From a virus, in the IMG/VR virus record IMGVR_UViG_3300021431_000070, positions 1 to 23,470 of that record: a stretch of DNA of 23,470 bases. One strand, given 5' to 3'. Under the pieces are notes generated by a model that was not told the origin of the DNA, made no database searches, and was given only the letters and a program-made list of their open reading frames with translations. The position numbers were made by a program, and so were the translations under genes. The first letter of the stretch is position 1; each line of letters opens with the position of its first letter. This document shows, in pieces, positions 1 to 23,470 of this stretch.

Positions 1-127
1 TGATGGCAACATTTGAACAATTAGCAAAGGCCAATGCCCAGATCAGGACCACTGACATCAAGGGCAAGGATTATGCAGAGGTCAACCAGAGGATTAAAGC
101 CTTCCGCATGGTTTACCCGGATGGCGG
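1..127. repeat. Terminal direct repeat (copy 1), identical to 23344-23470
   Basis: Read directly: tgatggcaacatttgaacaattagc...ccggatggcgg occurs at both ends. The ORF at 3..560 is the continuation of the ATG at 23346. Confidence 0.95.
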
Positions 128-3140: not shown

Positions 3141-3374
3141 GTGACAGCCGGATCTGTGTTGGTGATTGTGACTTGTGCAGTCATGAAGAGGAGGAAGAGG
3201 ATGAGTGACTACCAGGCGGAGAGCTTCAACAGAGTTAAAGGAGCCATGTGCAAAGCCTTCTGTATTTCAGATCTGAATTGCAAATGGTGCATTATGAGGA
3301 AGCTTACTCCGGGGACAGCAGGCAAATATAAAATCAAGGACTTACTTTGGAAACCAAGAAGGAGGGCAAAATGA
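3141..3374 (+). CDS. Hypothetical small protein (start uncertain: GTG 3141, ATG 3184 or ATG 3201)
   Basis: Track ORF. ATG 3201 is preceded by GAGGAGGAAGAGG. An overlapping 29-codon Cys-rich frame (3119-3208) also stays open, so coding assignment here is ambiguous. Confidence 0.35.
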   Translation: MTAGSVLVIVTCAVMKRRKRMSDYQAESFNRVKGAMCKAFCISDLNCKWCIMRKLTPGTAGKYKIKDLLWKPRRRAK

Positions 3375-5774: not shown

Positions 5775-7102
5775 TCCAGTTTTATTTGCGTAAAGATGAA
5801 CCTATCACAACACTGCAGTTGGGCGATATTGTCAGCTCATTCTTAACAAACTGCATGCCAGCCATGAAAAAGAGATATAACTACTACATTGGACAGCAGA
5901 AGATCCTGCAGAAGGTAAGCGAGGATCCTAACCGCCCTTGCAATAACATTGTGTGTAACTTTGTTAAGAACATTGTAAACACCTATGAAGGCTATGCGGT
6001 TGGTGTTCCGGTTACATATGCCTCAGATGATGAAGGCTTTGAACATCTGGAGGATATACTTAAGTATAACGATGTAGCCGATGAAGATGCAGAGCTCTTC
6101 CGGAATGGCCTGATCTATGGCAGAGCTGCAGAGATCTGTTACCTGGATGAAGATAAGAATGAGCGCTTCAAAGTACTCGACAGCATGGGGACCATCCCGG
6201 TATATGATGATACCTTGGATGGTAACCTGATCTATGCGATCCGGCTGTGGCAGGAGAACATTGGGGCATCTCTTAACGAGACATACATGGCAGAGGTCTA
6301 TGATGACCGCTATGTAACCAGATACAAAAGCGCTGAGGGCTTTCAGTCCTTCCAGTTTGTGTCTCAGGAACTGCATGGATTCCTTCAGGTGCCTATCACA
6401 TTCTTCTCCCTGAATACAGAAGAGGAAGGCATTGCAGATACCATCTTCTCCCTTCAGGATGCATATAACTCCCTGATCAGCGACAGCATTGATGATTGGG
6501 ATGCCTTCTGTGATGCTTACTTAGTTCTTAAGGGAGCAGTAGCAGATGGCGAGGATCTGGAGAACATGAAGGCATACAGAACCCTCATGTTAGATGCGGA
6601 TGCCTCTGCTGAATACCTGGTTAAGAACACCTCCTCCACAGAGATCGAGCACCTCATGGATGCGGTAGAGGAGAAAATCAGAGAAATGAGTGCCTGCCCT
6701 AACTTTGCCAGCGAGAACTTTGGCACAAGTTCCGGCATAGCAATCAGATACAGATGCATGGCCCTGGAGAATAACACTGCCTCCATTCTAAATAACTTTA
6801 AGAAGGCCCTGCAGAGGCGCATAGAACTCTTAGCTGAAACACTCATGGACTCAGAAGCGCTCTGGAGGGATGTCAGCATTACCTTTACCAGAAATCTGCC
6901 GATTAACACCAGCGACATTGCAAGTGAGATCAATCAGCTCCGGGGCCTTGTTTCTGACAGAACACTTCTTGCACAGCTTCCGTTCATCACGGATGTGGAA
7001 GAAGAGATGGAAGAGATCAAGAGGCAGAAGCTGGAGAACTTGGAGGTTTATACATTTGCTTCCCCTGCAGAGGAGGTAGAGGATGGCATTGAAGAGGAAT
7101 AA
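5771..7102 (+). CDS. Portal protein (SPP1 gp6-like)
   Basis: 443 aa directly after terL with ATGA overlap. NIVCNFVKNIVNTYEGYAVG-type N-terminal region and an acidic C-terminus typical of SPP1-family portals. Confidence 0.85.
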   Translation: MIQFYLRKDEPITTLQLGDIVSSFLTNCMPAMKKRYNYYIGQQKILQKVSEDPNRPCNNIVCNFVKNIVNTYEGYAVGVPVTYASDDEGFEHLEDILKYNDVADEDAELFRNGLIYGRAAEICYLDEDKNERFKVLDSMGTIPVYDDTLDGNLIYAIRLWQENIGASLNETYMAEVYDDRYVTRYKSAEGFQSFQFVSQELHGFLQVPITFFSLNTEEEGIADTIFSLQDAYNSLISDSIDDWDAFCDAYLVLKGAVADGEDLENMKAYRTLMLDADASAEYLVKNTSSTEIEHLMDAVEEKIREMSACPNFASENFGTSSGIAIRYRCMALENNTASILNNFKKALQRRIELLAETLMDSEALWRDVSITFTRNLPINTSDIASEINQLRGLVSDRTLLAQLPFITDVEEEMEEIKRQKLENLEVYTFASPAEEVEDGIEEE

Positions 7103-12019: not shown

Positions 12020-14039
12020 AGGCTTATATGTAACAATAGAAGCGGATGACAGCAAATACCAGGCAGCGATGAACCGGGTGCAGTCAGCCACCAAACAGAC
12101 CGCCTCACAGATCGAGATGGCTATGGAGGCTGTGCAGATCGCACTCGGTCCGGAAATGGTTCAGGCTGCAGAATCCGCAGGATATTCTTTGGAGAAACTT
12201 GGCGAGGTACTCCTTAAGATTAAGTCAAAGGGCTTATCTCTTGATGACTCCCTTGATGCTCTTAAGCAGGCTTTAGGAGAATTAGGAGTACAAGCGGAGC
12301 AGGCCTCTACGAAAGTACAGTCAGCCTCCACTAAATCAAGCGGAGGCTTCAGCAGGATAGGCATGGGGGCAAAGGTGTTCCTGGCAAATATGGCAGCGAT
12401 GGCAGTGCAACAGTTTGCACAAATGGCACAGCAGGCACTCGGCAATGTAGTTAGCTGGGCGAATCAGACCGGCAACAGTTTTGCTTCCTGCTTTGCGGAT
12501 CTAAGCGCATCAGCCAACCAGATGAAGAACCAGCTTGGCGCAGCATTTGCATCCCTGCTTCAGACGTTATCGCCTGTTATCATGCAGATTATCAGTTATG
12601 TCATTGTATTAGCTGATGCACTATCTCAGGTATTCGCTGCGCTTGGTGGTAGATCTACTTACTTAAGAGCCAAGAAAAACTTTGGCGGAGTAGGAGCTGC
12701 AGTCGGTGGAGTAGGAGCTGCAGCCGCAGGAGCTAATAAAGAACTCAAGAAAACTCTTCTTGCATTTGATGAACTTAACCAGATGCAGGATAACTCTTCC
12801 TCCGGAGGCGGAGGTGGAGGAGGCGGTGGCGGTGGTGCCGGTGGTGGCATTGGCGATCTGTTTGAAGAAGCACCACTTGCTACAGAGGGCCTGCTTGGCA
12901 TGTTCAATAAACTTGCCTCTGTTGTTGGTCCTATTTTTAAAGAAGTAGGGAAGTTTATTGATGATAACCTTCTTTATCCAATATCAAAGGGCGTACCTGG
13001 TGCAATGACCGCCTTAATGGGTATTTTTGAGCATGATAAAGAAAAATTTATTAGTGGCTTGGATGAGATGCAGGAAGGCATTGCAAATACCGAATGGCTC
13101 AAAAAGGTATCTCAGGCCATTGCAAATGTTTTCAAATTCCTTATGTCTATTCCTCTTAAGATCAAGAAAGTAATCTTACAAGCTGGTCTTGATATTGCGG
13201 AAGGGCTCCGCCCCGTGCTTGAGTTTTTTGGCATAGATGTAGATGGCTTTGTGTCAAACCTGCAGACAGCCATTGATAAGACTGATGAAGGCATTGAGAA
13301 GAACGAGAAATACTGGGACACATGGAACCAGTGGTATGAGGGCTCAATAACCACAGAAGAGATGATTAAAGCCCAGGACAGACTCAAGGGCGCTGTTGGG
13401 CAAAACACTAGCGCACTTAGGCAATATATTGACATGTACCCGGAACTTTCTGCAGCAGGAGAAACAGCAAGCACTATTGTTAGAAAAGCATTAGGAAAAA
13501 CCAAAGAAGGTGCAGACACTGTTAAGGGCGGAATTGATAGCGCAGCCGGATCCATTAGAAATCTTGCAAGCTCTGCCCCTAACTTCAATGGCATTAACAA
13601 TGGCCTTAAAGGTATTGGAAGCCAGGCGGATAGCGTAAGCGGTAAAGTGTGGGCCCTTAAGAACGCTCTCAATAATCTCTCTGGAACTACAGCGACAGCC
13701 ACAATCCAAGCAGTTACAAGCGTAATCAATGGTTTAACCAGACGATACGCAGAAGGCGGTCATCCGGAAGTAGGTCAGCTCTTTATCGCAAGAGAGGCAG
13801 GCCCTGAGCTTGTAGGTACAATGGGCGGAACTCCTACTGTTGCTAACAATGCTGACATCATCGCTGGTATTGAGGCTGGTGTCTACAATGCATTCATGAG
13901 AGCAGAAGGCGGTGCCGGTGGTGGAAGTACTACCACAGAGGTCAATGTATACATGGATAATGAAGTAGTAGCAAGAGCTGCACTTGCAGGGCAGAGCTCA
14001 CTGAACAGAAGATACAATGTATCTGCCTATGCGCATTAA
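12012..14039 (+). CDS. Tape measure protein (675 aa)
   Basis: Largest ORF directly after the chaperone pair. Ala/Gln/Gly-rich helical composition. The ATG at 12012 overlaps the GT stop (ATGAATGA). An 11-Gly tract lies at 12804-12836. Confidence 0.85.
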   Translation: MNEGLYVTIEADDSKYQAAMNRVQSATKQTASQIEMAMEAVQIALGPEMVQAAESAGYSLEKLGEVLLKIKSKGLSLDDSLDALKQALGELGVQAEQASTKVQSASTKSSGGFSRIGMGAKVFLANMAAMAVQQFAQMAQQALGNVVSWANQTGNSFASCFADLSASANQMKNQLGAAFASLLQTLSPVIMQIISYVIVLADALSQVFAALGGRSTYLRAKKNFGGVGAAVGGVGAAAAGANKELKKTLLAFDELNQMQDNSSSGGGGGGGGGGGAGGGIGDLFEEAPLATEGLLGMFNKLASVVGPIFKEVGKFIDDNLLYPISKGVPGAMTALMGIFEHDKEKFISGLDEMQEGIANTEWLKKVSQAIANVFKFLMSIPLKIKKVILQAGLDIAEGLRPVLEFFGIDVDGFVSNLQTAIDKTDEGIEKNEKYWDTWNQWYEGSITTEEMIKAQDRLKGAVGQNTSALRQYIDMYPELSAAGETASTIVRKALGKTKEGADTVKGGIDSAAGSIRNLASSAPNFNGINNGLKGIGSQADSVSGKVWALKNALNNLSGTTATATIQAVTSVINGLTRRYAEGGHPEVGQLFIAREAGPELVGTMGGTPTVANNADIIAGIEAGVYNAFMRAEGGAGGGSTTTEVNVYMDNEVVARAALAGQSSLNRRYNVSAYAH

Positions 14040-14051
14040 GGAGGTGAACCG

Positions 14052-14420
14052 ATGGCAGTTAAACAGATGATAATTGTTGATGGTGTTGGGTTCACTCCTT
14101 CAGAGATGACAGTCAACATCCAGAATGTTAATGCAGCAGATTCTGGAAGAGTTCTGAATGCCAATGCCACCATGTACACCAACCGGCTGACAAGGAAGTA
14201 CAAGATCCAGCTGTCTTGGTGGGGACCTGATCCGGAAGAGACTAAACGGATCCTGCAGGCATTTGCTCCTGAATACTTCTGGGTAAGGTTTACAGATCCA
14301 CTCACAAATGCACTGACCACTAAGCAGTTTTACTGCGGAGATCAGAGCATTCCGGTCAAAACATGGCTCAGCAATAACAAGAGATACAGCAAAGTAAGTT
14401 TTAATATAATTGAGAGGTAG
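14052..14420 (+). CDS. Distal tail protein (Dit)-like small tail protein
   Basis: Position immediately after the tape measure. At 122 aa it is short for a Dit, so the assignment is positional only. Confidence 0.45.
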   Translation: MAVKQMIIVDGVGFTPSEMTVNIQNVNAADSGRVLNANATMYTNRLTRKYKIQLSWWGPDPEETKRILQAFAPEYFWVRFTDPLTNALTTKQFYCGDQSIPVKTWLSNNKRYSKVSFNIIER

Positions 14421-14423
14421 CTA

Positions 14424-16409
14424 ATGATTTCCACATCACAAGATTGGAAAGATTATACAGCGGAATCCAATGTTTTCCAGATTAAGGCAGTGCTCACACC
14501 AGTGGTAGGCGCTGCTCTTAATTTGACCGGAGATGATTTTATGGGAGGGTCTGTAAGGTTTACAGATGCCTCCTCCTCTGGGCAGAGTTTCAACATTGGT
14601 TCTGTAATATCTAACAGCTTCAAATGCACACTGAATAATCAGGATGGCAAGTTTGATGGCTTCAGATTCCGGGGCGCAACCATTGCGGTCCAGTTTGGAG
14701 TCATCTATGAGGATGAATCAGCGGAATGGATTGACCGTGGCATTTATACAGTTGAGATGCCATCGACACTTGGCAAAACCATTCAGCTTGTTGCCTATGA
14801 CTTCATGGATAAGATGAACCGGGCATACATCGGCAAGGATGGAAATGGTGATATTGTTTTTCCTATCTATTCTCAGGCACTTGCGCAGGCGCTCTGTGAT
14901 TATTGCGGAGTCTCCTATGATGAGGACTTTTGGAGCATCAGCTCAAACCTTGAAATAGATGGATTTGAGTATAACGAAAGCACCACATGTAGAGAAGTAC
15001 TCTGCTGGATCTGCCAGATTAACTGCGGATTCGCTCGCATGAAGAATGATGGCAAAATGAAAGTGCAGTGGTACTCATCTGGAAATGCTGAGGTTCTGAG
15101 TGATGCACTGGATGGCGGAATCATGAATCCGTGGGGTTCAGATGAGACTGCTGATGGTGGAATCATGGATCCATGGACTGTGGTTCCTGATATAGATGGC
15201 GGTTATGCTCTGGATTATTCTGTGAGCAAAGTATCTGCAATCTCTGTAGGATCAGAGGATGTAGAGATAACCGGTGTCAGGGCATATGTTCCAAACACAG
15301 TTGATGCTTTTAACTTCTCTACAGCAGGAGCACCAGGATATATTCTGGAGATTAAAGACAATGCACTTGTTAATGATGAAAATAAGGAAGTAGTAGCAAA
15401 TGCCATCTGGCAGACCTTAAAGGGCATCAAACTCAGACCTTATAATGCAACTATCTATGGAGATCCGGCTTATGAGGCAGGCGATCTGATTGCAATCTCT
15501 GACTATTTAGGCAGAGTTTTTGTTTCCTATGTCACTAACATTACTTTTAATCTGAATGCCTTGGAGACAATCAGCTGCGGAGCTGAGACTCCGGCAGACA
15601 TGGAGAACTCTTACTCTAACCCAAATACATCTGTAATGGCTGGTGCTGTCGTTAATGCATATGATTACATCCAAGCAAAGAAGATCTCAGCGGACTATAT
15701 CTCTGCCGGAACAATCGAGGCAACTGTAGTTGCAAAGGACTTCAAACTTGAGGGCGGTTCAATCTCAATCGAAACAAATGATGAAAATGCCGATTGGATT
15801 AACCTTAACTTAAATAGTGGCACTGGAAGATATACAAGTAACACCTCTCCAACTGTTATGGGAATTGCTGCGGAGTACGATTATTATGCGGACTTTATAG
15901 GCAACAGAAATGTAATGGCTGGCCTTGAGGTAGGCAGATGGGATGGACAGACACAAACCCAAGTTTTAACCGCAGATGCAATGGGCAATGTCTACATCAA
16001 TGGAAACGGAACTGCAAAGTTTAGTGGGTCTGTCACAGCAACCTCGTTTGTTAACTCTTCACGCATTGACTTGAAAGAGAATATTAAAAAGGTTGATTCT
16101 GTTTTAAACAAGATCAAAGATGCGGACATCCTCTCTTTTAACTTCATTGATGATGCAAAAGAGCGCATAGGTCTTGCGATCGGTGGCAAGTACAATGTGC
16201 CGGAGGAAGTAGTTGCTAAAGATGAGGATGGAGAAGATCAAGGTGTAGACCTTTACACAATGGTTTCAATGGCATGGAAGGCTATCCAGGAACAGCAAGA
16301 AATCATAGAGCAGTTAGAAACAAGGGTGGAAGTGTTAGAAAAGAAACTGAATCCTTTTGGAAAGATAACAGACATCATAAAAGGAGATAATGATGGCAAT
16401 ACAAATTAG
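14424..16409 (+). CDS. Tail-associated (Tal / prophage tail endopeptidase-like) protein with C-terminal S74-type intramolecular chaperone domain
   Basis: 661 aa in the Tal position. The C-terminal SSRIDLKENIKKV ... GLAIGGKYNVPEEVV ... VDLYTMVSMAWKAIQEQQEIIEQLE (nt 16056-16406) matches the auto-cleaving Peptidase_S74 chaperone pattern. Confidence 0.7.
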   Translation: MISTSQDWKDYTAESNVFQIKAVLTPVVGAALNLTGDDFMGGSVRFTDASSSGQSFNIGSVISNSFKCTLNNQDGKFDGFRFRGATIAVQFGVIYEDESAEWIDRGIYTVEMPSTLGKTIQLVAYDFMDKMNRAYIGKDGNGDIVFPIYSQALAQALCDYCGVSYDEDFWSISSNLEIDGFEYNESTTCREVLCWICQINCGFARMKNDGKMKVQWYSSGNAEVLSDALDGGIMNPWGSDETADGGIMDPWTVVPDIDGGYALDYSVSKVSAISVGSEDVEITGVRAYVPNTVDAFNFSTAGAPGYILEIKDNALVNDENKEVVANAIWQTLKGIKLRPYNATIYGDPAYEAGDLIAISDYLGRVFVSYVTNITFNLNALETISCGAETPADMENSYSNPNTSVMAGAVVNAYDYIQAKKISADYISAGTIEATVVAKDFKLEGGSISIETNDENADWINLNLNSGTGRYTSNTSPTVMGIAAEYDYYADFIGNRNVMAGLEVGRWDGQTQTQVLTADAMGNVYINGNGTAKFSGSVTATSFVNSSRIDLKENIKKVDSVLNKIKDADILSFNFIDDAKERIGLAIGGKYNVPEEVVAKDEDGEDQGVDLYTMVSMAWKAIQEQQEIIEQLETRVEVLEKKLNPFGKITDIIKGDNDGNTN

Positions 16410-16872
16410 ACGAGGTACAAATGCGAATTGGGAATCCAATTACGGAAATATTGTAAGCGGAGAGCCAGCGATCACAACAGACAGTGAGCGGTTTGTAGTA
16501 GGCACATCAGTAGGGGCATATGCAGAGTTCAGCAATATCAATGTAGTGGCAGAACCATACAACTTTGCGGAGTCTTATATCGTTGGACAACTATGTAACT
16601 ATGGTGGGCAGACATATAAATGCCTTGCCCCAACAAGCGGAACATGGGATTCAACAAAGTGGGGAGCGGTTACATTGTCAAATGGCATTTTATCGGCAGA
16701 GGAATATTTGGAACTTGCAAGGCTGATGGCATCGGCATATAGCAATTCAGCAACATACTTCCAAGGACAGTTTGTCACATATGGTGGCAATGTCTACGAA
16801 GCGAAGCAAAACATAACCTCTGCGGAATCATGGAACAGTAGTCACTGGAATAAGATAGGAAGTGCATCATGA
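16390..16872 (+). CDS. Tail fibre protein (Mtd_N/HylP-like N-terminus; two CBM5/12-like aromatic repeats)
   Basis: The N-terminal IQIRRGTNANWESNYGNIVSGEPAITTDS is typical of fibre N-domains. Repeats: YIVGQLCNYGGQTYKCLAPTSGTWDSTKW and YFQGQFVTYGGNVYEAKQNITSAESWNSSHW. Confidence 0.65.
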   Translation: MMAIQIRRGTNANWESNYGNIVSGEPAITTDSERFVVGTSVGAYAEFSNINVVAEPYNFAESYIVGQLCNYGGQTYKCLAPTSGTWDSTKWGAVTLSNGILSAEEYLELARLMASAYSNSATYFQGQFVTYGGNVYEAKQNITSAESWNSSHWNKIGSAS

Positions 16873-17273
16873 ATATAGCGAATTTATTTAAGAACGTATT
16901 ATTAGCAAGCCACCCTGTTGGGAGCATTTATATTACAACAGACGGCTCATTTAACCCTCACGAAAAATGGGGGGGGTCATGGGAACTACTAAAAGATAAA
17001 TTTCTTGTAGGTGCTGGAAGTAACTACACATTGGGAGCAAGTGGTGGTGAAGCTACACACACATTGACAGTAGCAGAGTTGCCGCCTCATAGTCATCCTG
17101 TCAACATATTTACAGGAAGCGGTTCGATCAATGGTGGTATTTCAACCTATGCCAATGCTTCAAGAGGTGGCTCACAGTATTCTGCTTTTGGCGACACAGC
17201 CGAACAGCAAGGTAAAGCCCACAACAACTTGCCCCCATACACAGCAGTAAATATGTGGTTGAGAACCGCATAG
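16869..17273 (+). CDS. Tail-collar-domain fibre/baseplate protein (cassette ORF A)
   Basis: PVGSIYIT ... GGEATHTLTVAELPPHSHP ... HNNLPPYTAVNMW is the Phage Tail Collar pattern. ATGA overlap with the fibre gene. Contains an in-frame G8 tract. Confidence 0.8.
   Translation: MNIANLFKNVLLASHPVGSIYITTDGSFNPHEKWGGSWELLKDKFLVGAGSNYTLGASGGEATHTLTVAELPPHSHPVNIFTGSGSINGGISTYANASRGGSQYSAFGDTAEQQGKAHNNLPPYTAVNMWLRTA
16969..16976 (+). repeat. G8 homopolymer inside ORF A (codons TGG GGG GGG)
   Basis: Counted directly. A +1 or -1 G change leads to a stop within 7-9 codons. Confidence 0.95.
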
Positions 17274-17277
17274 CATA

Positions 17278-17300
17278 GCATCCTCTTTCCGTGAGGATGC
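17278..17300 (+). other. 8-bp hairpin just after the ORF A stop
   Basis: GCATCCTC / tttccgt / GAGGATGC. No U-tract. Its 5' arm can alternatively pair with the ORF B SD (CCTCTTTCC 17282-17290 with GGAAAGGGG 17301-17309). Confidence 0.5.
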
Positions 17301-17314
17301 GGAAAGGGGAATAA

Positions 17315-17647
17315 GTGAACATCAAAAATGTTTTGAAGAATATTGCAAAAATTCTTCCACAAAAACTAACAACAGACGACATCAAAATTGACACGGCAAA
17401 CGCTACAAATGTCGTTGTTCCAGCAGGTGGAACAACGTGGAGTTCGGTAGATGTGCCGAGCAATCGCAAAATGCTTGCTTGTGTTGGATTCTATTGGACA
17501 GGCACGAATGGAACAAATTTAACTCCATACTGCTTTCGTCAAGACCTACCAAATCATATGCAGTGTGCTTTGAGGAATTGGTCGAATTCACAAGCGACAG
17601 TGACTATTTATTTCTCCTACATCTATATAGATGTTGTGGGGGGGTAA
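17315..17647 (+). CDS. Cassette ORF B: small putative receptor-binding/tip protein with shared N-terminal motif (GTG start)
   Basis: The GTG start is supported by the conserved N-terminus MNIKNVLKNI, as in ORFs A, C and D, and by a GGAAAGGGGA SD. Ends ...DVVGG-TAA, encoded by GTG GGG GGG TAA. Confidence 0.6.
   Translation: MNIKNVLKNIAKILPQKLTTDDIKIDTANATNVVVPAGGTTWSSVDVPSNRKMLACVGFYWTGTNGTNLTPYCFRQDLPNHMQCALRNWSNSQATVTIYFSYIYIDVVGG
17638..17644 (+). repeat. G7 homopolymer at the end of ORF B, abutting TAA
   Basis: Counted directly (17638-17644), followed by TAA at 17645-17647. Confidence 0.95.
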
Positions 17648-17668
17648 CTAAACTCCTAGCCTATCTGT

Positions 17669-17697
17669 CATCACTCCTTAACAGAAAGGCGGTGATG
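17669..17697 (+). promoter_or_regulatory. Hairpin sequestering the SD of ORF C
   Basis: CATCACTCCTT (17669-17679) pairs with AAGGCGGTGATG (17686-17697), with one bulge, one G-U pair and a 6-nt loop. The 3' arm is the SD region of the ATG at 17700. Confidence 0.5.
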
Positions 17698-17699
17698 GT

Positions 17700-18155
17700 A
17701 TGAACTTGAAGAACCTTTTTAAGAATATTCTTAACAACACCAAAAAAGTAGCAGTAGAAAAGGCATGGGAAAGCACCTCGTATTCAACGTATAGCGGAAC
17801 GGCATCGTTTTCGATTGAATCATATAGATGCTACAAAGCTGGCGACTTGCTGTTCATGTTTTGCAAAGGCACTACAACCTCTCAAATGACAAATGCAATG
17901 ACAATGCCACTTGTAAAGATACCGATTACTGTAAGACAAATGCTTGTTGGGGCTGCGGTTGTAGGTGGTACGAACTATCCGCTTGTCAACACAGTTACAA
18001 GTAGCGATAGTCAGTGGATGGCACAAGGCATTGCGTCAACAGTACCATCCAATACAGCAATTTATTTGTGGGCTGTCTATTTGATTGGAGAATTGGGGGG
18101 GGTAATACTTAACCAACTTCACGCACTCCTTGGAAGGAGGTGCGTGGCATGGTAA
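17700..18155 (+). CDS. Cassette ORF C: small putative receptor-binding/tip protein with shared N-terminal motif (extended form as sequenced)
   Basis: N-terminus MNLKNLFKNIL. With the G8 tract as sequenced, the frame continues 17 codons past GELGG and stops at 18153-18155, overlapping the ORF D ATG. Confidence 0.6.
   Translation: MNLKNLFKNILNNTKKVAVEKAWESTSYSTYSGTASFSIESYRCYKAGDLLFMFCKGTTTSQMTNAMTMPLVKIPITVRQMLVGAAVVGGTNYPLVNTVTSSDSQWMAQGIASTVPSNTAIYLWAVYLIGELGGVILNQLHALLGRRCVAW
18095..18102 (+). repeat. G8 homopolymer near the end of ORF C
   Basis: Counted directly. With G7 the ORF would end TTG GGG GGG TAA (…GELGG-stop), exactly like ORF B. Confidence 0.95.
18120..18146 (+). promoter_or_regulatory. 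Hairpin sequestering the SD of ORF D
   Basis: CACGCACTCC (18120-18129) pairs with GGAGGTGCGTG (18136-18146), with one bulged G and loop TTGGAA. The 3' arm contains the GGAGGTG SD of the ATG at 18149. Confidence 0.5.
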
Positions 18156-18541
18156 CAAACCTTATGAAGAACATTCTCTACAAACTTGGGCTGATTGCCG
18201 ATTACATTGTGGAACGTGGCACAAGCGGAATATGGACTTATCGCAAGTTGGCGAGTGGTGATGCTGAATGCTGGGGAACAACCTCAAAAGTTGCAAACAT
18301 TAATATAGCGCAAGGAAATATTTATACAAGTCAAGAACTAACAGAAGCCTTTCCTTCCACTCTCTTTACAGATATTAAAGCAGTTGAAGTTTCGAAAGGC
18401 TCTTATGATTCTAATACAGGAATCTTTGGTTCTGCATGGAATTTAGATGCACACGTTGTTAGAGCAACAGTTTTCAGAGGAAACTCTTCCACCAACAACA
18501 CAGTCAACTTATCTTTTCATTTGTTAGGGAAATGGAAATAG
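18149..18541 (+). CDS. Cassette ORF D: gp53-C-terminal-like small fibre tip protein with shared N-terminal motif
   Basis: MVTNLMKNILYKL, then IVERGTSGIWTYRKLASGDAECWG, a pattern I recall from small fibre-tip domains of Firmicutes prophages. AAGGAGGTG SD before the ATG at 18149 (track GTG 18140 is less likely). Confidence 0.6.
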   Translation: MVTNLMKNILYKLGLIADYIVERGTSGIWTYRKLASGDAECWGTTSKVANINIAQGNIYTSQELTEAFPSTLFTDIKAVEVSKGSYDSNTGIFGSAWNLDAHVVRATVFRGNSSTNNTVNLSFHLLGKWK

Positions 18542-19093: not shown

Positions 19094-19999
19094 ATGGCAA
19101 GAATGACAGTAGCTGATTGGATCAAGCGCCTTAAATATGTTGAGGCTAACAGAAGGACCTACTACAGCAACCGCTTCCCGGAGAACTGTGGCCAGATCCA
19201 TGCAGGCGGAGTACAGTCTTATGATTGTATTGGCCTTGTAAAAAGCATCATCAATGAGCCGGATATTGTATATAAAACGGAACCGGTTGGGTATTATGTA
19301 ACTCCGGGCAAAGTTATCCCTGACACAACAGAGAGGGGCATCCTGAATCTTTGCAGTGATGTTAGTTATGGCTTTGGAAACTTAGTTCCGGGCGAATACT
19401 TATATATGAATGGTCATGCCGGTGTTTATGTAGGTGACTTTACGGATCCAAGCGGAGTGGTCAATGTAATCGAATGCACTCCGGCATTTGGCGGTGGTGT
19501 TGTTACATCCTATGTGGATGGCGCAGGAAGAAGATGGAACCATAGAGGCGGTTATCAGGTAATGGCATGGGGAGCGCATGGCAAACTCTCCAAGTACATT
19601 GACTATGGCGCACAGCCGAAACCACAGCCGGGTAAAATCACAGTAGATGGTGAGTGGGGCTTTGCTACTACCGCACTGGCTCAGAAGGTATTTGGCACTG
19701 AGGTGGATGGCGAAGTTAGTAATCAGGACACTAACTGCAGAAAATACTGCCTTAACTGTGTACCGAAATCAGAAGCAAATGGCTCTTGGGTTTGGAATGA
19801 TTCCTCCGGCTATTCCCCTCTGATCGGAGCGATCCAGAAGAAACTGGGTGTTAGAACAGATGGCAAGTTTGGACCGGACACGATCAAGGCCCTCCAGAAG
19901 CAGCTCAAGGAAAATGTAGATAAAAACCTTGAGATTGATGGCTATTGTGGACCTGAAACAGTGAAGGCATGGCAGAAGTTCCTGAACAGCAAAATCTGA
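19094..19999 (+). CDS. Endolysin: N-terminal NlpC/P60-type (C40) cysteine peptidase plus three C-terminal PG_binding_1-like repeats
   Basis: YDCIGLVKS (Cys nucleophile) and GHAGVYVG (His). Repeats VDGEWGFATTALAQKVFG, TDGKFGPDTIKALQKQL and IDGYCGPETVKAWQKFL. Confidence 0.8.
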   Translation: MARMTVADWIKRLKYVEANRRTYYSNRFPENCGQIHAGGVQSYDCIGLVKSIINEPDIVYKTEPVGYYVTPGKVIPDTTERGILNLCSDVSYGFGNLVPGEYLYMNGHAGVYVGDFTDPSGVVNVIECTPAFGGGVVTSYVDGAGRRWNHRGGYQVMAWGAHGKLSKYIDYGAQPKPQPGKITVDGEWGFATTALAQKVFGTEVDGEVSNQDTNCRKYCLNCVPKSEANGSWVWNDSSGYSPLIGAIQKKLGVRTDGKFGPDTIKALQKQLKENVDKNLEIDGYCGPETVKAWQKFLNSKI

Positions 20000-20003
20000 T
20001 GCG

Positions 20004-20025
20004 TTGGTTCAGTTTTGGTTCAGTT
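20004..20025 (+). repeat. Arm-type repeat block, left of the attP core (2 x TTGGTTCAGTT)
   Basis: The 22-nt TTGGTTCAGTTTTGGTTCAGTT is repeated exactly at 20225-20246. Confidence 0.85.
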
Positions 20026-20119: not shown

Positions 20120-20161
20120 AGCGGAAAACCTTGAAATAATAGGCTTTCCGCTTATTTTTTT
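20120..20161. terminator. Bidirectional intrinsic terminator between the late operon/tRNA fragment and the lysogeny operon
   Basis: AGCGGAAA (20120-20127) / TTTCCGCT (20145-20152), followed by TATTTTTTTT on the + strand and by ATTTTT on the - strand. Confidence 0.7.
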
Positions 20162-20207: not shown

Positions 20208-20246
20208 GGTTCAATTCTGGTTCATTGGTTCAGTTTTGGTTCAGTT
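20208..20246 (+). repeat. Arm-type repeat block, right of the attP core (4 x GGTTCA-containing units)
   Basis: GGTTCAATT (20208), GGTTCATT (20219), GGTTCAGTT (20227) and GGTTCAGTT (20238), all in the same orientation as the two left copies. Confidence 0.8.
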
Positions 20247-20592
20247 AGATCCGCTTAAATTCCCATAAAAAGATTCCAACCACAGCGACTACCGCCAGAA
20301 CCACAAAAATAATAAACTGCTGCATAACATACTGCTCTGAAAATAGGGCAAGTATAACTCCGGCAAAACTGGTGCAGAGTGCTGCGATGCATCCAGGGAG
20401 CACAGCCCACTTATTGCACACCACCATGATCAGCCCAGTTATGAAGTACAAAATGATAAAGTACAGCATGAAGTCAGCTATTACATTAGTGTCGAGCATT
20501 GAATCAAAGAAACTGCCTACAAAGGATGCAAAAGCCAGACCCATTGCATACAGCATAGCTAAAATCCCTAATATTATTCGTAATACTCTCAT
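20245..20592 (-). CDS. Polytopic membrane protein co-transcribed with the integrase (candidate superinfection-exclusion / lysogenic-conversion gene)
   Basis: 115 aa with about four hydrophobic helices. The GGAGGGG SD overlaps the integrase stop codon. Located between int and attP. Confidence 0.6.
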   Translation of the reverse strand: MRVLRIILGILAMLYAMGLAFASFVGSFFDSMLDTNVIADFMLYFIILYFITGLIMVVCNKWAVLPGCIAALCTSFAGVILALFSEQYVMQQFIIFVVLAVVAVVGIFLWEFKRI

Positions 20593-20601
20593 AATCCCCT
20601 C

Positions 20602-21630
20602 CTATATTGCTAAATCTTTATATAATTCCTCTGTTTTCTCATTCTCCTCCAGGATGTGACTGTAAGTCTGCAAGAATATAAGTTCAGAATGCCCCATAAG
20701 CGCTGCGGCCTTCTTTGTACTTATAATTCCCCTCTGGCAAAGATAATAAAGTTCACTGGCTCTGTTGTGCCGGAAATGATAGAGTGTTATATCAGGTATT
20801 CCAATGGCATTCAAAATCCGCTTTTTGAAACATCTGTATGCAGATTTTGTCATGAGCGTTCCATCCTTTTTGTGGAATAAAAGCAGATTACTTCCATTAT
20901 CATCTATATACTTACGTATATACTTAAGTAGTTGTTCCGGAATAGGCAGGTCCCTAACAACTTCTGTTTTGGTTCCCTTTAAATTAGGGTTATTCCCATC
21001 AAACTCTACTGCTTTGGTTACATGGAGTACTTTCCGCTTTAGATCCAGATCAGAGCGAGTGAGAGCCAATACTTCCCCTGGTCTTAATCCAAATGCCAAT
21101 AGAATGTTGACAAACATCCGCTCCATAGGAGGAAGGTCTGCTTCCCTGATCTTTTCCTTTTCCTTATCTGTAAAAGCTCTTTTTTCTTCCGGCTTACGTT
21201 TCTTAAGCTCCAACTTTTTAGCCGGGTTAGAAGTTATGATTCCATCTTCTATGGCTGTGTCAAAAATCTGATTGAGTGTAAGGCGCAAGATCTCCGCCAT
21301 TCTTCTTCCGGCATATTGGTTTACAATTTGCTGGCAGTCAGATTTTGTTATTTTCCTAAGTTCAAGCGCATCAATAACATCAAACTTCTTCAGGGCAGAA
21401 GAATACATTTCTCTTGTCTTTGCGCTCTTATTGGCCTTGTAAATAGTAAACCACTTTTTACTATAAGCGCCAAAAGATATATCTGATGGGTTTTTTGTTT
21501 TTGATGCTTGTACAAAATACTCCCTGATATTGCGATCCAGTTCTGCCTGACTGGATCCATAGAAGTGCTTCCTGATCCGGGAGCCATCAGATTTAAAACC
21601 CACTTGAAGGTATTTATGGTATTTTTTCAT
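20602..21630 (-). CDS. int: Tyrosine site-specific integrase
   Basis: C-terminal catalytic pattern: LRPGEVLAL (Arg), HFRHNRASE (H-x-x-R), GHSELIFLQTYSH (His...Tyr). N-terminal SAM-like domain. Adjacent to the tRNA-derived attP. Confidence 0.9.
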   Translation of the reverse strand: MKKYHKYLQVGFKSDGSRIRKHFYGSSQAELDRNIREYFVQASKTKNPSDISFGAYSKKWFTIYKANKSAKTREMYSSALKKFDVIDALELRKITKSDCQQIVNQYAGRRMAEILRLTLNQIFDTAIEDGIITSNPAKKLELKKRKPEEKRAFTDKEKEKIREADLPPMERMFVNILLAFGLRPGEVLALTRSDLDLKRKVLHVTKAVEFDGNNPNLKGTKTEVVRDLPIPEQLLKYIRKYIDDNGSNLLLFHKKDGTLMTKSAYRCFKKRILNAIGIPDITLYHFRHNRASELYYLCQRGIISTKKAAALMGHSELIFLQTYSHILEENEKTEELYKDLAI

Positions 21631-21648: not shown

Positions 21649-22278
21649 TTATCTTACTGCGCTCTGGAAGGCAATGGCCTTGCCTATGATCCGGATCTGG
21701 TTGAGTTCCTCGCCCATATAAACCATAGGAGCATAAGCAGGGTTTTCTGCATTTAATGTCATGGTTTGATGCTTCTTGTCATAGTAGACTCGTTTTAGTG
21801 TTGCTTCATCCCTGATAATGACTGCAGCTATCTCTCCATTTTCCACATCCGGCTGTTGATGGATAAAAACATAATCGCCATCTAATATCCTGGCATTTAT
21901 CATGCTGTCACCCTTTGCAATCAGAACCAGATCGGCTGCATCCGGAGCATCCTCAACTGTAAGATATTCCGCTTTTTGATTTGTAACTATTGGCTCTCCA
22001 CATGCGATTTCACCTAATACTGGGATTTGGCGGAATTTAACCTTCTGGAAACCATAATTTATAAGAGTTTGCGGAGGTTCTTCCCATCCCATAATAACCG
22101 CAGGGGAAATATCCAAAGCATCAGCAAGGGCTTTTATTTTGTCTCTTTTCATGTTGGCAATATCGCCAGACTCCCATCTGGAGATGGTTCCCTCACTAAC
22201 ACCAACTGCATTAGCCAACTGCTTCATTGTTAAGCCTAACTCATTGCGCCTATTGTATATAATTTCCTTAATGTTCAT
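21649..22278 (-). CDS. CI/LexA-like repressor: N-terminal XRE-type HTH plus C-terminal S24 autopeptidase domain
   Basis: LGLTMKQLANAVGVSEGTISRWESG forms the HTH. AKGDSM (Ser) and ATLKRV (Lys) form the dyad. GGAGGG SD 7 nt before the ATG at 22278 (the track start at 22293 lacks an SD). Confidence 0.9.
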   Translation of the reverse strand: MNIKEIIYNRRNELGLTMKQLANAVGVSEGTISRWESGDIANMKRDKIKALADALDISPAVIMGWEEPPQTLINYGFQKVKFRQIPVLGEIACGEPIVTNQKAEYLTVEDAPDAADLVLIAKGDSMINARILDGDYVFIHQQPDVENGEIAAVIIRDEATLKRVYYDKKHQTMTLNAENPAYAPMVYMGEELNQIRIIGKAIAFQSAVR

Positions 22279-22308
22279 AATATATCCCTCCATCTTGTGT
22301 GGACCTTA

Positions 22309-22436: not shown

Positions 22437-22646
22437 ATGTTCGACCAGAAGAAGTTAAAAGCTCAGATGGTATTAAAAGGAATGACAGCTGCAGAACTCT
22501 CTAAAGTATTGGATATTGACCCATCCACCTTCCATAGAAAGATGCGTAATGATGGCAGCTTTACCAGGGAAGAGATCAACACGATCATCCAAGTACTCGA
22601 AATTGAGAACCCGGCTGATATTTTTTTTGCAAAAGAACTTGCGTAA
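22437..22646 (+). CDS. Cro-like / XRE-family HTH early regulator
   Basis: 69 aa. GMTAAELSKVLDIDPSTFHRKMRN forms the HTH. Divergent from the repressor. AAAGGAGGAG SD. Confidence 0.8.
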   Translation: MFDQKKLKAQMVLKGMTAAELSKVLDIDPSTFHRKMRNDGSFTREEINTIIQVLEIENPADIFFAKELA

Positions 22647-23162: not shown

Positions 23163-23346
23163 GCGCTGGCAGACCATTACAGAGCTGAAGAGGGATGGAT
23201 GGAGTGAGAGCCAGCTCCGCAGGATCGCCAGATCTGATGAAGCTCACAAGTACTGCCGGAGGACCAGTGAGAGAGGGAAATACCAATTTGATACCTATGC
23301 CTTAAACAGCAAGGCACCATATTTAGACAAGATAGGAGGAAACTGA
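23155..23346 (+). CDS. Small basic protein, possible HTH DNA-binding protein (excisionase-like?)
   Basis: GGAGG 7 nt before the ATG at 23155. WQTITELKRDGWSESQLRRIA ... GKYQFD loosely resembles excisionase/HTH_17 proteins. Its stop overlaps the ATG of the annealase gene across the circular junction. Confidence 0.35.
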   Translation: MAKRWQTITELKRDGWSESQLRRIARSDEAHKYCRRTSERGKYQFDTYALNSKAPYLDKIGGN

Positions 23347-23470
23347 TGGCAACATTTGAACAATTAGCAAAGGCCAATGCCCAGATCAGGACCACTGACA
23401 TCAAGGGCAAGGATTATGCAGAGGTCAACCAGAGGATTAAAGCCTTCCGCATGGTTTACCCGGATGGCGG
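23344..23470. repeat. Terminal direct repeat (copy 2), identical to 1-127
   Basis: Read directly. Confidence 0.95.

Follow-up and report, generated by a model that had tools for sequence, protein, structure and literature searches.

Background

The host range of temperate phages of the gut and rumen is poorly understood. Retroelements and DNA inversions are the host-range diversifiers known there, and the invertible G segment of Mu, the invertible C segment of P1 and the diversity-generating retroelements acting on Mtd (BPP-1) all diversify the host range of phages. For poly-G tracts in phage receptor-binding genes, the only established case to our knowledge is that of the Campylobacter Fletchervirus phages. 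Here we examine a 23,470-nucleotide (nt) stretch of viral DNA, positions 1 to 23,470 of IMG/VR record IMGVR_UViG_3300021431_000070 (the whole stretch analysed, hereafter the window), in which three poly-G tracts lie in or at the ends of consecutive small genes of the tail-fibre cassette. Judging from comparison of this locus with its relatives, the three tracts are probably hypermutable contingency tracts in a cassette of four alternative fibre tips, combined with gates on translational coupling.

In Fletchervirus phages, receptor-binding protein genes carry hypermutable poly-G tracts (Sorensen et al. 2021, Cell Rep 35:109214, via PMC12633550, PMC12823448 and PMC10877375), and a 2025 Nature paper on gut phages names Fletchervirus as the example of phage poly-G tracts (PMC12823448). 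According to these sources, the runs are of 7 to 11 G, cause frameshifts and generate subpopulations of differing receptor use; the phages are lytic myoviruses, and their Gram-negative host itself uses poly-G phase variation. Among bacteria, contingency loci with homopolymer phase variation are described in Campylobacter, Haemophilus, Neisseria and Bordetella (PMC2831843, PMC1891110, PMC8355987). Contingency loci with reversible frameshifts, interpreted as bet-hedging, are also reported in T2, T4 and other lytic phages, in a study that finds short repeats to be under-represented in coliphage tail-fibre genes (Gomez, Barrick & Waters 2025, PMC12633550).

The locus described here shares the logic described for Fletchervirus at the first tract of the window and at the 5′ tracts of two distant prophage loci (L030 and L023, below). 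More generally, poly-G runs lie in or at the ends of genes whose products are tip proteins by homology: A is a Gp10_C protein, and B and D are homologues of tip domains. The system works like that of Fletchervirus and is not a member of that phage group, because its cassette gave no DNA match by megablast among 50,697 phage records, its terminase and portal are only distantly like those of Firmicutes siphophages (portal at most 35 % identical) and it is temperate. Unlike those lytic myoviruses, with their Gram-negative host, it has a 23-kb siphovirus-like genome associated with gut Bacillota. Its tips are encoded by small separate open reading frames (ORFs) with a common N-terminal motif, and two of its three tracts stand at gene ends, so that a change in their length shifts the stop codon with respect to a hairpin and to the start of the following gene, without switching the tract's own gene; in both respects it differs from Fletchervirus.

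With the bacterial contingency loci this cassette shares tract type and length, an on/off effect of frameshifting and polymorphism between near-identical genomes. Whereas bacterial tracts are usually in promoters or within genes, these tracts belong to a phage structural operon, and those at 3′ ends would act on the downstream gene. Compared with the loci of T2 and T4, the tracts are poly-G, they are concentrated in a tail-tip cassette and they occur in temperate phages seen only in metagenomes. The outcome would resemble that of Mu, P1 and BPP-1, namely alternative tail-fibre tips within one lineage, and a protein with Mtd_N, the N-terminal domain of the Bordetella phage tropism determinant, adjoins the cassette; an exact look-up of that protein gave no match. 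A retroelement or an invertible segment was considered as the diversifier and rejected, the genome having no direct repeats longer than 34 nt, no inverted repeats of 30 nt or more and no template/variable pair. Neither a reverse transcriptase nor an invertase was found among the ORFs scanned, which are a part of all ORFs.

Hairpins that sequester a Shine-Dalgarno (SD) sequence, together with overlap of stop and start codons (ATGA), bring about translational coupling in RNA coliphages and in many operons. The junctions of the cassette have the same features: a hairpin takes up the SD of the following gene, and the upstream reading frame finishes on that gene's start codon. What sets them apart from classical coupling is that the reach of the ribosome to the hairpin would depend on a mutable homopolymer. 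The literature searched holds no report of poly-G switching in Firmicutes phages or gut temperate phages, and none of a homopolymer gating translational coupling.

Results

Three poly-G tracts cluster in the fibre-tip cassette

A prior interpretation of the window made without database searches (the sequence-only reading) had singled out three tracts, G8, G7 and G8, each with T on both sides. Their positions, lengths and flanks are as it described (Table 1), and beyond them there is no G or C run of 7 or more, nor even one of 6 or more on either strand of the window. The description of the tracts as the only long homopolymers of the genome is right for G and C but too broad overall, since an A7 (2663-2669), a T7 (20155-20161) and a T8 (22621-22628) lie outside the cassette.

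Table 1. Coordinates of the cassette features in the window (aa, amino acids)
Feature	Positions	Strand	Details
Fibre/adaptor protein, Mtd_N + CBM5/12	16390..16872	+	Pfam Mtd_N E=1.7e-7, CBM_5_12 E=1.5e-9; PHROG tail fibre match
ORF A, 134 aa, Gp10_C ('tail-collar' type) tip protein	16869..17273	+	Pfam PF21939 E=2.7e-19; motif MNIANLFKNVLL
Tract 1, G8, within ORF A (W34-G35-G36), gene intact	16969..16976	+	TGG GGG GGG
A/B junction hairpin	17281..17310	+	CCUCUUUCC pairs with ORF B SD GGAAAGGGG; conserved in L001 and L111
ORF B, 110 aa, GTG start, ends VVGG-TAA	17315..17647	+	small beta-sandwich tip domain
Tract 2, G7, ORF B end, immediate-stop state	17638..17644	+	GTG GGG GGG TAA (17645-17647)
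Type-1 junction (B/C)	17645..17703	+	TAA, second-frame TAA 17649-17651, hairpin 17664-17703 over ORF C SD and start
ORF C, 151 aa as sequenced	17700..18155	+	134-aa body ending ELGG (to 18101) + 17-aa read-through tail
Tract 3, G8, near ORF C end, read-through state	18095..18102	+	stop is TAA 18153-18155
Type-2 junction (C/D)	18103..18155	+	TAA, second-frame TAA 18110-18112, hairpin core 18119-18147, overlap ATGGTAA
ORF D, 130 aa, last tip gene (LIADY..GTSGIWTY...GKWK-stop)	18149..18541	+	last 116 aa match phrog_2712, E=1.3e-10

Chance figures were derived analytically from base composition. They put the expectation per strand at 1.0-1.1 for runs of at least seven G, close to the one that the sequence-only reading had guessed, and at 0.27 for runs of at least eight. 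Because about one run is expected on each strand, three in a genome are not rare (P ~0.1); three within 1,134 nt, the clustering that had been called very unlikely, are rare (~1e-3 after correction). Related DNA whose G+C content is similar has fewer such runs than expected, 3 of G7 or longer in 165 kb against 5.4.

Codon usage also sets the tracts apart. GGG is the rarest glycine codon (44 of 419, 10.5 %), and only 3 of the 50 Gly-Gly dipeptides in plus-strand ORFs are encoded by GGG-GGG, exactly those of the three tracts. The Gly-Gly of ORF A is invariant across the protein family. In the clade of the window, down to 46 % protein identity, it is written GGG-GGG in 5 of 6 contexts, whereas none of the 57 distant homologues uses this pair of codons. 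Being clade-specific, this codon choice indicates that the protein has no need of the tract and that the clade nevertheless keeps it, against codon bias. Synonymous interruption of a tract in close relatives, which would have spoken against the sequence-only reading, was not found in this clade.

A change of a single G in these tracts of G7-G8 truncates ORF A or shifts the stop of ORF B or C by 17-19 codons. Tract 1 lies in frame in ORF A, as had been read, and there G7 is predicted to give a stop 4 codons on and G9 a stop 7 codons on. ORF B does end in Gly-Gly at its TAA. At tract 2, G8 would lead through 19 further codons to the TGA at 17701-17703, which overlaps the ATG of ORF C (ATGA), and G9 or G6 would lead to the TAA at 17649-17651. 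For tract 3 the assertion that Gly-Gly abuts an in-frame TAA in ORF C proved mistaken. The frame from the ATG at 17700 runs TTG GGG GGG GTA ATA, so that with G8 the TAA at 18103 is out of frame, and a Gly-Gly-TAA end would need the G7 allele. As sequenced, ORF C continues for 17 codons (VILNQLHALLGRRCVAW) to the TAA at 18153-18155, overlapping the ATG of ORF D at 18149; G7 would instead stop it at 18103-18105, and G9 or G6 at the TAA at 18110-18112.

Tract length differs between close relatives

Tract lengths were compared between assembled contigs, and length polymorphism was observed at tracts of both kinds. Across 4,195 nt (window 12890-17084), relative L111 is 99.64 % identical to the window, and the sole gap is at tract 1, with G7 in place of G8. 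This G7 splits ORF A into pieces of 40 and 96 aa. On at least 10 contigs, which come from several studies, a second lineage (the L003 type) has G8 although its frame would need G7, and on one occasion it has G9; its broken allele recurs when the lineage is sampled through the neighbouring gene.

The junction tracts vary in the same way, among G7, G8 and G9. The alignment of L013 and L014 spans 2,658 nt without a mismatch, and its one gap is at the tract that ends their ORF B (G9 against G8). Between L097 and L099, the differences in 5.2 kb are G8 against G7, one other indel and one substitution. In exact-sequence look-ups one ORF B body carried G8, G7 and G9 on 33, 2 and 1 contigs, and another G8 and G9 on 13 and 2, a sampling of alleles by exact protein that is partly biased. 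Monomorphic tracts, which the sequence-only reading would have taken as evidence against phase variation, were thus not what the assemblies of close relatives (L111, L013/L014, L097/L099 and the exact look-ups) contained.

Where a tract-bearing ORF type is last in its cassette, the tract is gone in L111 (4409-4816, GTG GGA TAG) and is only G6 in L138 (972-1460). L138 also holds, beside this G6, the remnant of a deleted D-type gene, which suggests that the L111 and L138 forms are deletions ending at the tract.

Several side observations concern the tracts and their surroundings. The other indel between L097 and L099 is A3 against A2 right after the ATG of the holin-like gene (L097 4865, L099 2676), giving proteins of 75 and 61 aa. 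Either slippage at a second, small site or an error of assembly could account for it. Contigs L103 (end 2521) and L126 (end 4291) independently stop 11-21 nt past a junction tract, as is expected of a branch in the assembly graph at a heterogeneous tract, and this is only suggestive. In the G7 allele of tract 1 (window 16966-16980; L111 4076-4090), the sequence aaaATGGGGGGG places an ATG in frame with the C-terminal 96 aa, and this 96-aa fragment, which is without the docking motif, is annotated by gene callers as 'MGGSW...'.

Database proteins that start 'MGGSW...' or 'MQNGGGTW...' are the downstream parts of broken ORF A alleles, in at least 6 clusters. Automated annotation splits or mis-ends tract genes, producing both such fragments and 143-aa versus 160-aa forms. 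Host-range prediction from one assembly may therefore miss silent tips.

Junctions after the tracts carry stops in three frames and SD hairpins

The evidence on hairpins comes from folds of single sequences, z-scores against shuffled sequences and a comparison of initiation regions within the genome. The initiation regions of ORFs B, C and D are the three most structured of the 29 in the genome, whose median is near -6 kcal/mol. That of D ranks first: CUCC pairs with the ORF D SD GGAG(G), at -20.7 kcal/mol and z=-4.0. The A/B hairpin ranks second at about -20 kcal/mol (-19.8 to -20.1, z=-3.5), and the B/C hairpin third at -13.3 kcal/mol. In each junction hairpin, a CUCC/CUUUCC stretch is paired with the SD of the next ORF. 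The junction between ORF D and the holin gene was folded and has no such structure.

The type-1 junction also occurs in L001, L097, L110 and L114, behind unrelated ORF bodies, and the type-2 junction in L106, L109, L113 and L128. We compared 25 instances of a junction, of which about 12 are distinct. Each has one frame that stops directly after the tract (at 0), a second that stops at +4 or +7 and a third that stays open to between +41 and +56 nt. The stop of the open frame falls 1 or 4 nt past the first base of the next start codon in all 25 (ATGA, ATGGTAA, GTGTTAA). This open frame crosses the SD hairpin, and every junction variant has such a hairpin although the arm sequences differ, with arm pairs including CAUCAC/GUGAUG, CACGCAC/GUGCGUG and CACAC/GUG.UG. 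The anatomy is that of termination-reinitiation: stop and start overlap in the read-through frame and the SD is sequestered. Pattern scans of IMG/VR for the junction returned few further contigs, two of them chance matches.

All three states are represented within a single cluster at 90 % identity, which contains immediate-stop, delayed-stop and read-through forms and both junction types. Among homologues of ORF C, P0155 is in the read-through state with a type-1 tail and P0156, ending VGGGN, is in the stop state. The change from one junction type to the other falls exactly at the G-run/TAA, as seen for an L001-type ORF B in L128 and for ORF C of the window in L114; for this reason the tract also marks recombination boundaries between cassette modules. 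As a side observation, the same ORF body (at least 90 % identical) is found joined to either junction type at L128 4812, at L114 3126 and in proteins P0189-P0193.

Poly-G runs recur in distant low-G+C prophages

A scan of a genome collection for Gp10_C relatives gave 80 loci in metagenome-assembled genomes (MAGs) of Clostridia and Bacilli, many of them titled with ruminant or other gut samples, ruminant origin being read from these names. Over all 80 loci there is no enrichment: 12 G runs of at least 8 are present and 12.5 are expected, a figure dominated by the loci of high G+C. At 50 % G+C or more, G runs are strongly depleted, with 1 against 34 expected. In the 34 loci below 40 % G+C, where 0.30 runs of at least 8 and 0.01 of at least 10 would be expected, we counted 10 and 5, with none on the other strand, and it is for these low-G+C loci only that we claim enrichment.

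The tracts in these loci are placed differently from those of the window. L030 (723-2435) and L023 (2457-3976) each carry three tandem Gp10_C genes with G8-G11 some 20-25 codons from the start; in each, one tract leaves its gene intact and the other two disrupt theirs, the state being unclear in one case. L051 has an intact Gp10_C gene with a G8 of the same kind; for the poly-G runs of L021, L040 and L052 we reached no interpretation. That poly-G stands at different positions within one gene family would be difficult to account for unless selection favours the capacity to switch.

A separate observation concerns L069, a Bacilli MAG of 28 % G+C, which holds two copies of 'tgtttrctatatgcaaac-G10-tatttta' with the G10 at 3274-3283 and 5800-5809. 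One copy stands just 5′ of a prepilin-like host gene and not in a phage cassette, so that the element looks like host-side poly-G phase variation beside a prophage region.

A proposed mechanism

The length polymorphism of the tracts and the clade-specific GGG-GGG support the proposal of the sequence-only reading that these runs are slipped-strand phase-variation tracts in a fibre cassette. We infer that they gain or lose a G by slipped-strand mispairing in replication and that selection keeps them in the cassette of tips A-D. Tract 1 would be a switch within the gene: at G8 ORF A would be made, and at G7 or G9 translation would end at a stop 4 to 7 codons on. Tracts 2 and 3 would leave their own genes, B and C, active and set where the ribosome stops relative to the next gene. 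In two frames it would stop at once or 4-7 nt on, and the next SD would stay closed in its hairpin. In the third frame it would read 17-19 codons through the hairpin and end on the next start codon; going by the anatomy of the junctions, only this read-through frame would open the hairpin and permit re-initiation. Each 3′ tract would in this way switch the downstream gene and at the same time add a short tail to the upstream protein or remove it. In the genome of the window, A would be on, C would probably be poorly translated since B is in the stop state, and D would be coupled to C, which is in the read-through state.

Our tentative proposal, to which we give somewhat less than even odds, is that the 3′ tracts form a previously undescribed mutable gate on translational coupling, that the chain of gates with the in-gene switch yields a heritable and reversible mix of virions, and that such systems are widespread in gut and rumen Bacillota prophages. 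With its stops in three frames, the conserved junction points to a simple means by which a homopolymer could, via translational coupling, control the gene next to it. If the proposal is true, a single small temperate phage would give rise to a heritable, reversible mixture of virions with varied combinations of receptor-binding tips. The data themselves extend probable poly-G switching to uncultured temperate Bacillota phages, in many lineages and with independent tract placements.

Alternative explanations

A different account of the 3′ tracts is that they add or remove a basic, hydrophobic C-terminal tail of 17-19 aa (e.g. VTKLLAYLSSLLNRKAVMV) that alters or disables tip B or C, for example by affecting how it trimerises or docks; ordinary packing of genes would then explain why the stop falls on the next start codon. 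This account gains from the frequency of read-through, the most common of the states among lineages (about 10 of the 15 distinct junctions), and from the likeness of tails within a junction type. Yet it is the anti-SD/SD hairpin that dictates the sequence of the tail, most substitutions in the tail are non-synonymous, and the tail is wholly different between junction types on one ORF body. Tract and tail are moreover missing exactly where no downstream tip gene follows, and the read-through stop always falls on the next start codon; we regard this account as unlikely. The tracts might also be recoding sites, at which ribosomal -1/+1 frameshifting on G GGG GGG or transcriptional slippage sets a fixed ratio of short and extended products and length differences between genomes are incidental. 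Frameshifting is common in phage tail operons, and the G-run is formally slippery (X XXY YYZ), SD-like and followed by a stop codon and a hairpin. Recoding is disfavoured because tract length, which sets the default frame, ranges from G6 to G9 in genomes that are otherwise nearly identical, while a recoding site is usually invariable, and because the hairpins start 16-19 nt past the tract and not at the 5-9 nt typical of -1 stimulators; neither the spacing nor the length conservation of a programmed -1 frameshift site is present. Recoding can account neither for tract 1 nor for the 5′ tracts of L030 and L023, and the cassette matched no known RNA family in Rfam, all of which makes it quite improbable.

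That one ORF body occurs with a type-1 or a type-2 junction, with the crossover exactly at the tract, and that junction DNA is conserved between unrelated ORF bodies, would suit a poly-G-TAA that is simply a module boundary for recombination between phage tip cassettes and has no role in switching. Such a boundary leaves the in-gene tract 1, the stops in three frames, the single-G polymorphism and the distant 5′ tracts unexplained, and it is compatible with switching as a side effect; as the whole explanation we consider it improbable. Chance runs, or sequencing and assembly errors at homopolymers, could be thought of because three G runs of 7 or more in 23 kb are not rare and coverage of the window contig is only ~12x. 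The tracts are clustered, however, their positions are kept down to 46 % protein identity, the frames around them are organised, and identical alleles turn up repeatedly across many independent samples and assemblers (33 contigs carry one allele and 16 carry one broken ORF A allele), so that an artefact is extremely improbable.

Several points weigh against the switching and coupling that we prefer. The low coverage of the window contig is one, and another is that the polymorphism lies between assemblies, some of them possibly from the same animals. The skew of 33:2:1 among alleles means that switching is not fast enough to equalise them. In the L003-type lineage only broken ORF A alleles are on record and no intact one, which is equally consistent with ORF A decaying as a pseudogene in that lineage. 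With respect to the junctions, the B/C hairpin is only moderately stable (z=-1.7), and no useful consensus fold came out of RNAalifold, the two junction types being misaligned by MAFFT. The read-through tail, finally, could itself be a functional product.

Cassette genes and their proteins

The gene for the Mtd_N and CBM5/12 protein is kept 5′ of the cassette in all related loci. ORF A scores 70.9 bits against Pfam PF21939, for which the curated cut-off is 27, and it also matches the C-termini of PHROG tail proteins; 196 homologues were found. For ORF B, an AlphaFold2 model with a mean predicted confidence (pLDDT) of 91 has an N-terminal helix and a six-strand beta-sandwich. The best matches of this model in a fold search were weak (E ~0.02), to the C-terminal domains of R-type pyocin fibres and to a snail lectin; they support a tip-like beta-sandwich and do not amount to an identification. 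The ORF B family includes small proteins that stand alone and C-terminal parts of long fibre proteins. Tract-free homologues end Y-[IL]-Y-[IV]-D, and the B-type domain does not include the GG tail. ORF D is without a tract, is followed by the holin-like gene and is always last in the cassettes of relatives.

ORFs A to D share the N-terminal motif MN-x-x-N-L-F-K-N-I/V-L (MNIANLFKNVLL, MNIKNVLKNIAK, MNLKNLFKNILN and MVTNLMKNILYK), from which the cassette would appear to consist of alternative fibre-tip (receptor-binding) modules with a common docking helix. Having this docking motif in common, the four proteins probably compete for one site on the fibre. In addition, protein P0161 (232 aa) is a fusion of a D-type domain (GTSGIWTYRKW...GLWR) to a B-type domain, which means that tip domains are modules that one polypeptide can string together. 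The cassette contains no sites resembling promoters or terminators beyond what chance predicts.

The phage genome

The ends of the window (1-127 and 23344-23470) are identical over 127 nt and indicate a circularly closed assembly, hence a complete small phage genome of 23,343 bp. The cassette is identical to that of ENA contig ERZ12302815 NODE_4749. Genes for a tyrosine integrase, at 20602-21630 (-), and for a CI/S24-type repressor, at 21649-22293 (-), mark the phage as temperate. A direct repeat of 34 nt (19992-20025 and 20213-20246, 88 % identical, core TTGGTTCAGTTTTGGTTCAGTT) flanks the interval that separates the lysin gene's end from a membrane-protein ORF on the minus strand (20245-20592), and it could be an attachment-site or regulatory repeat.

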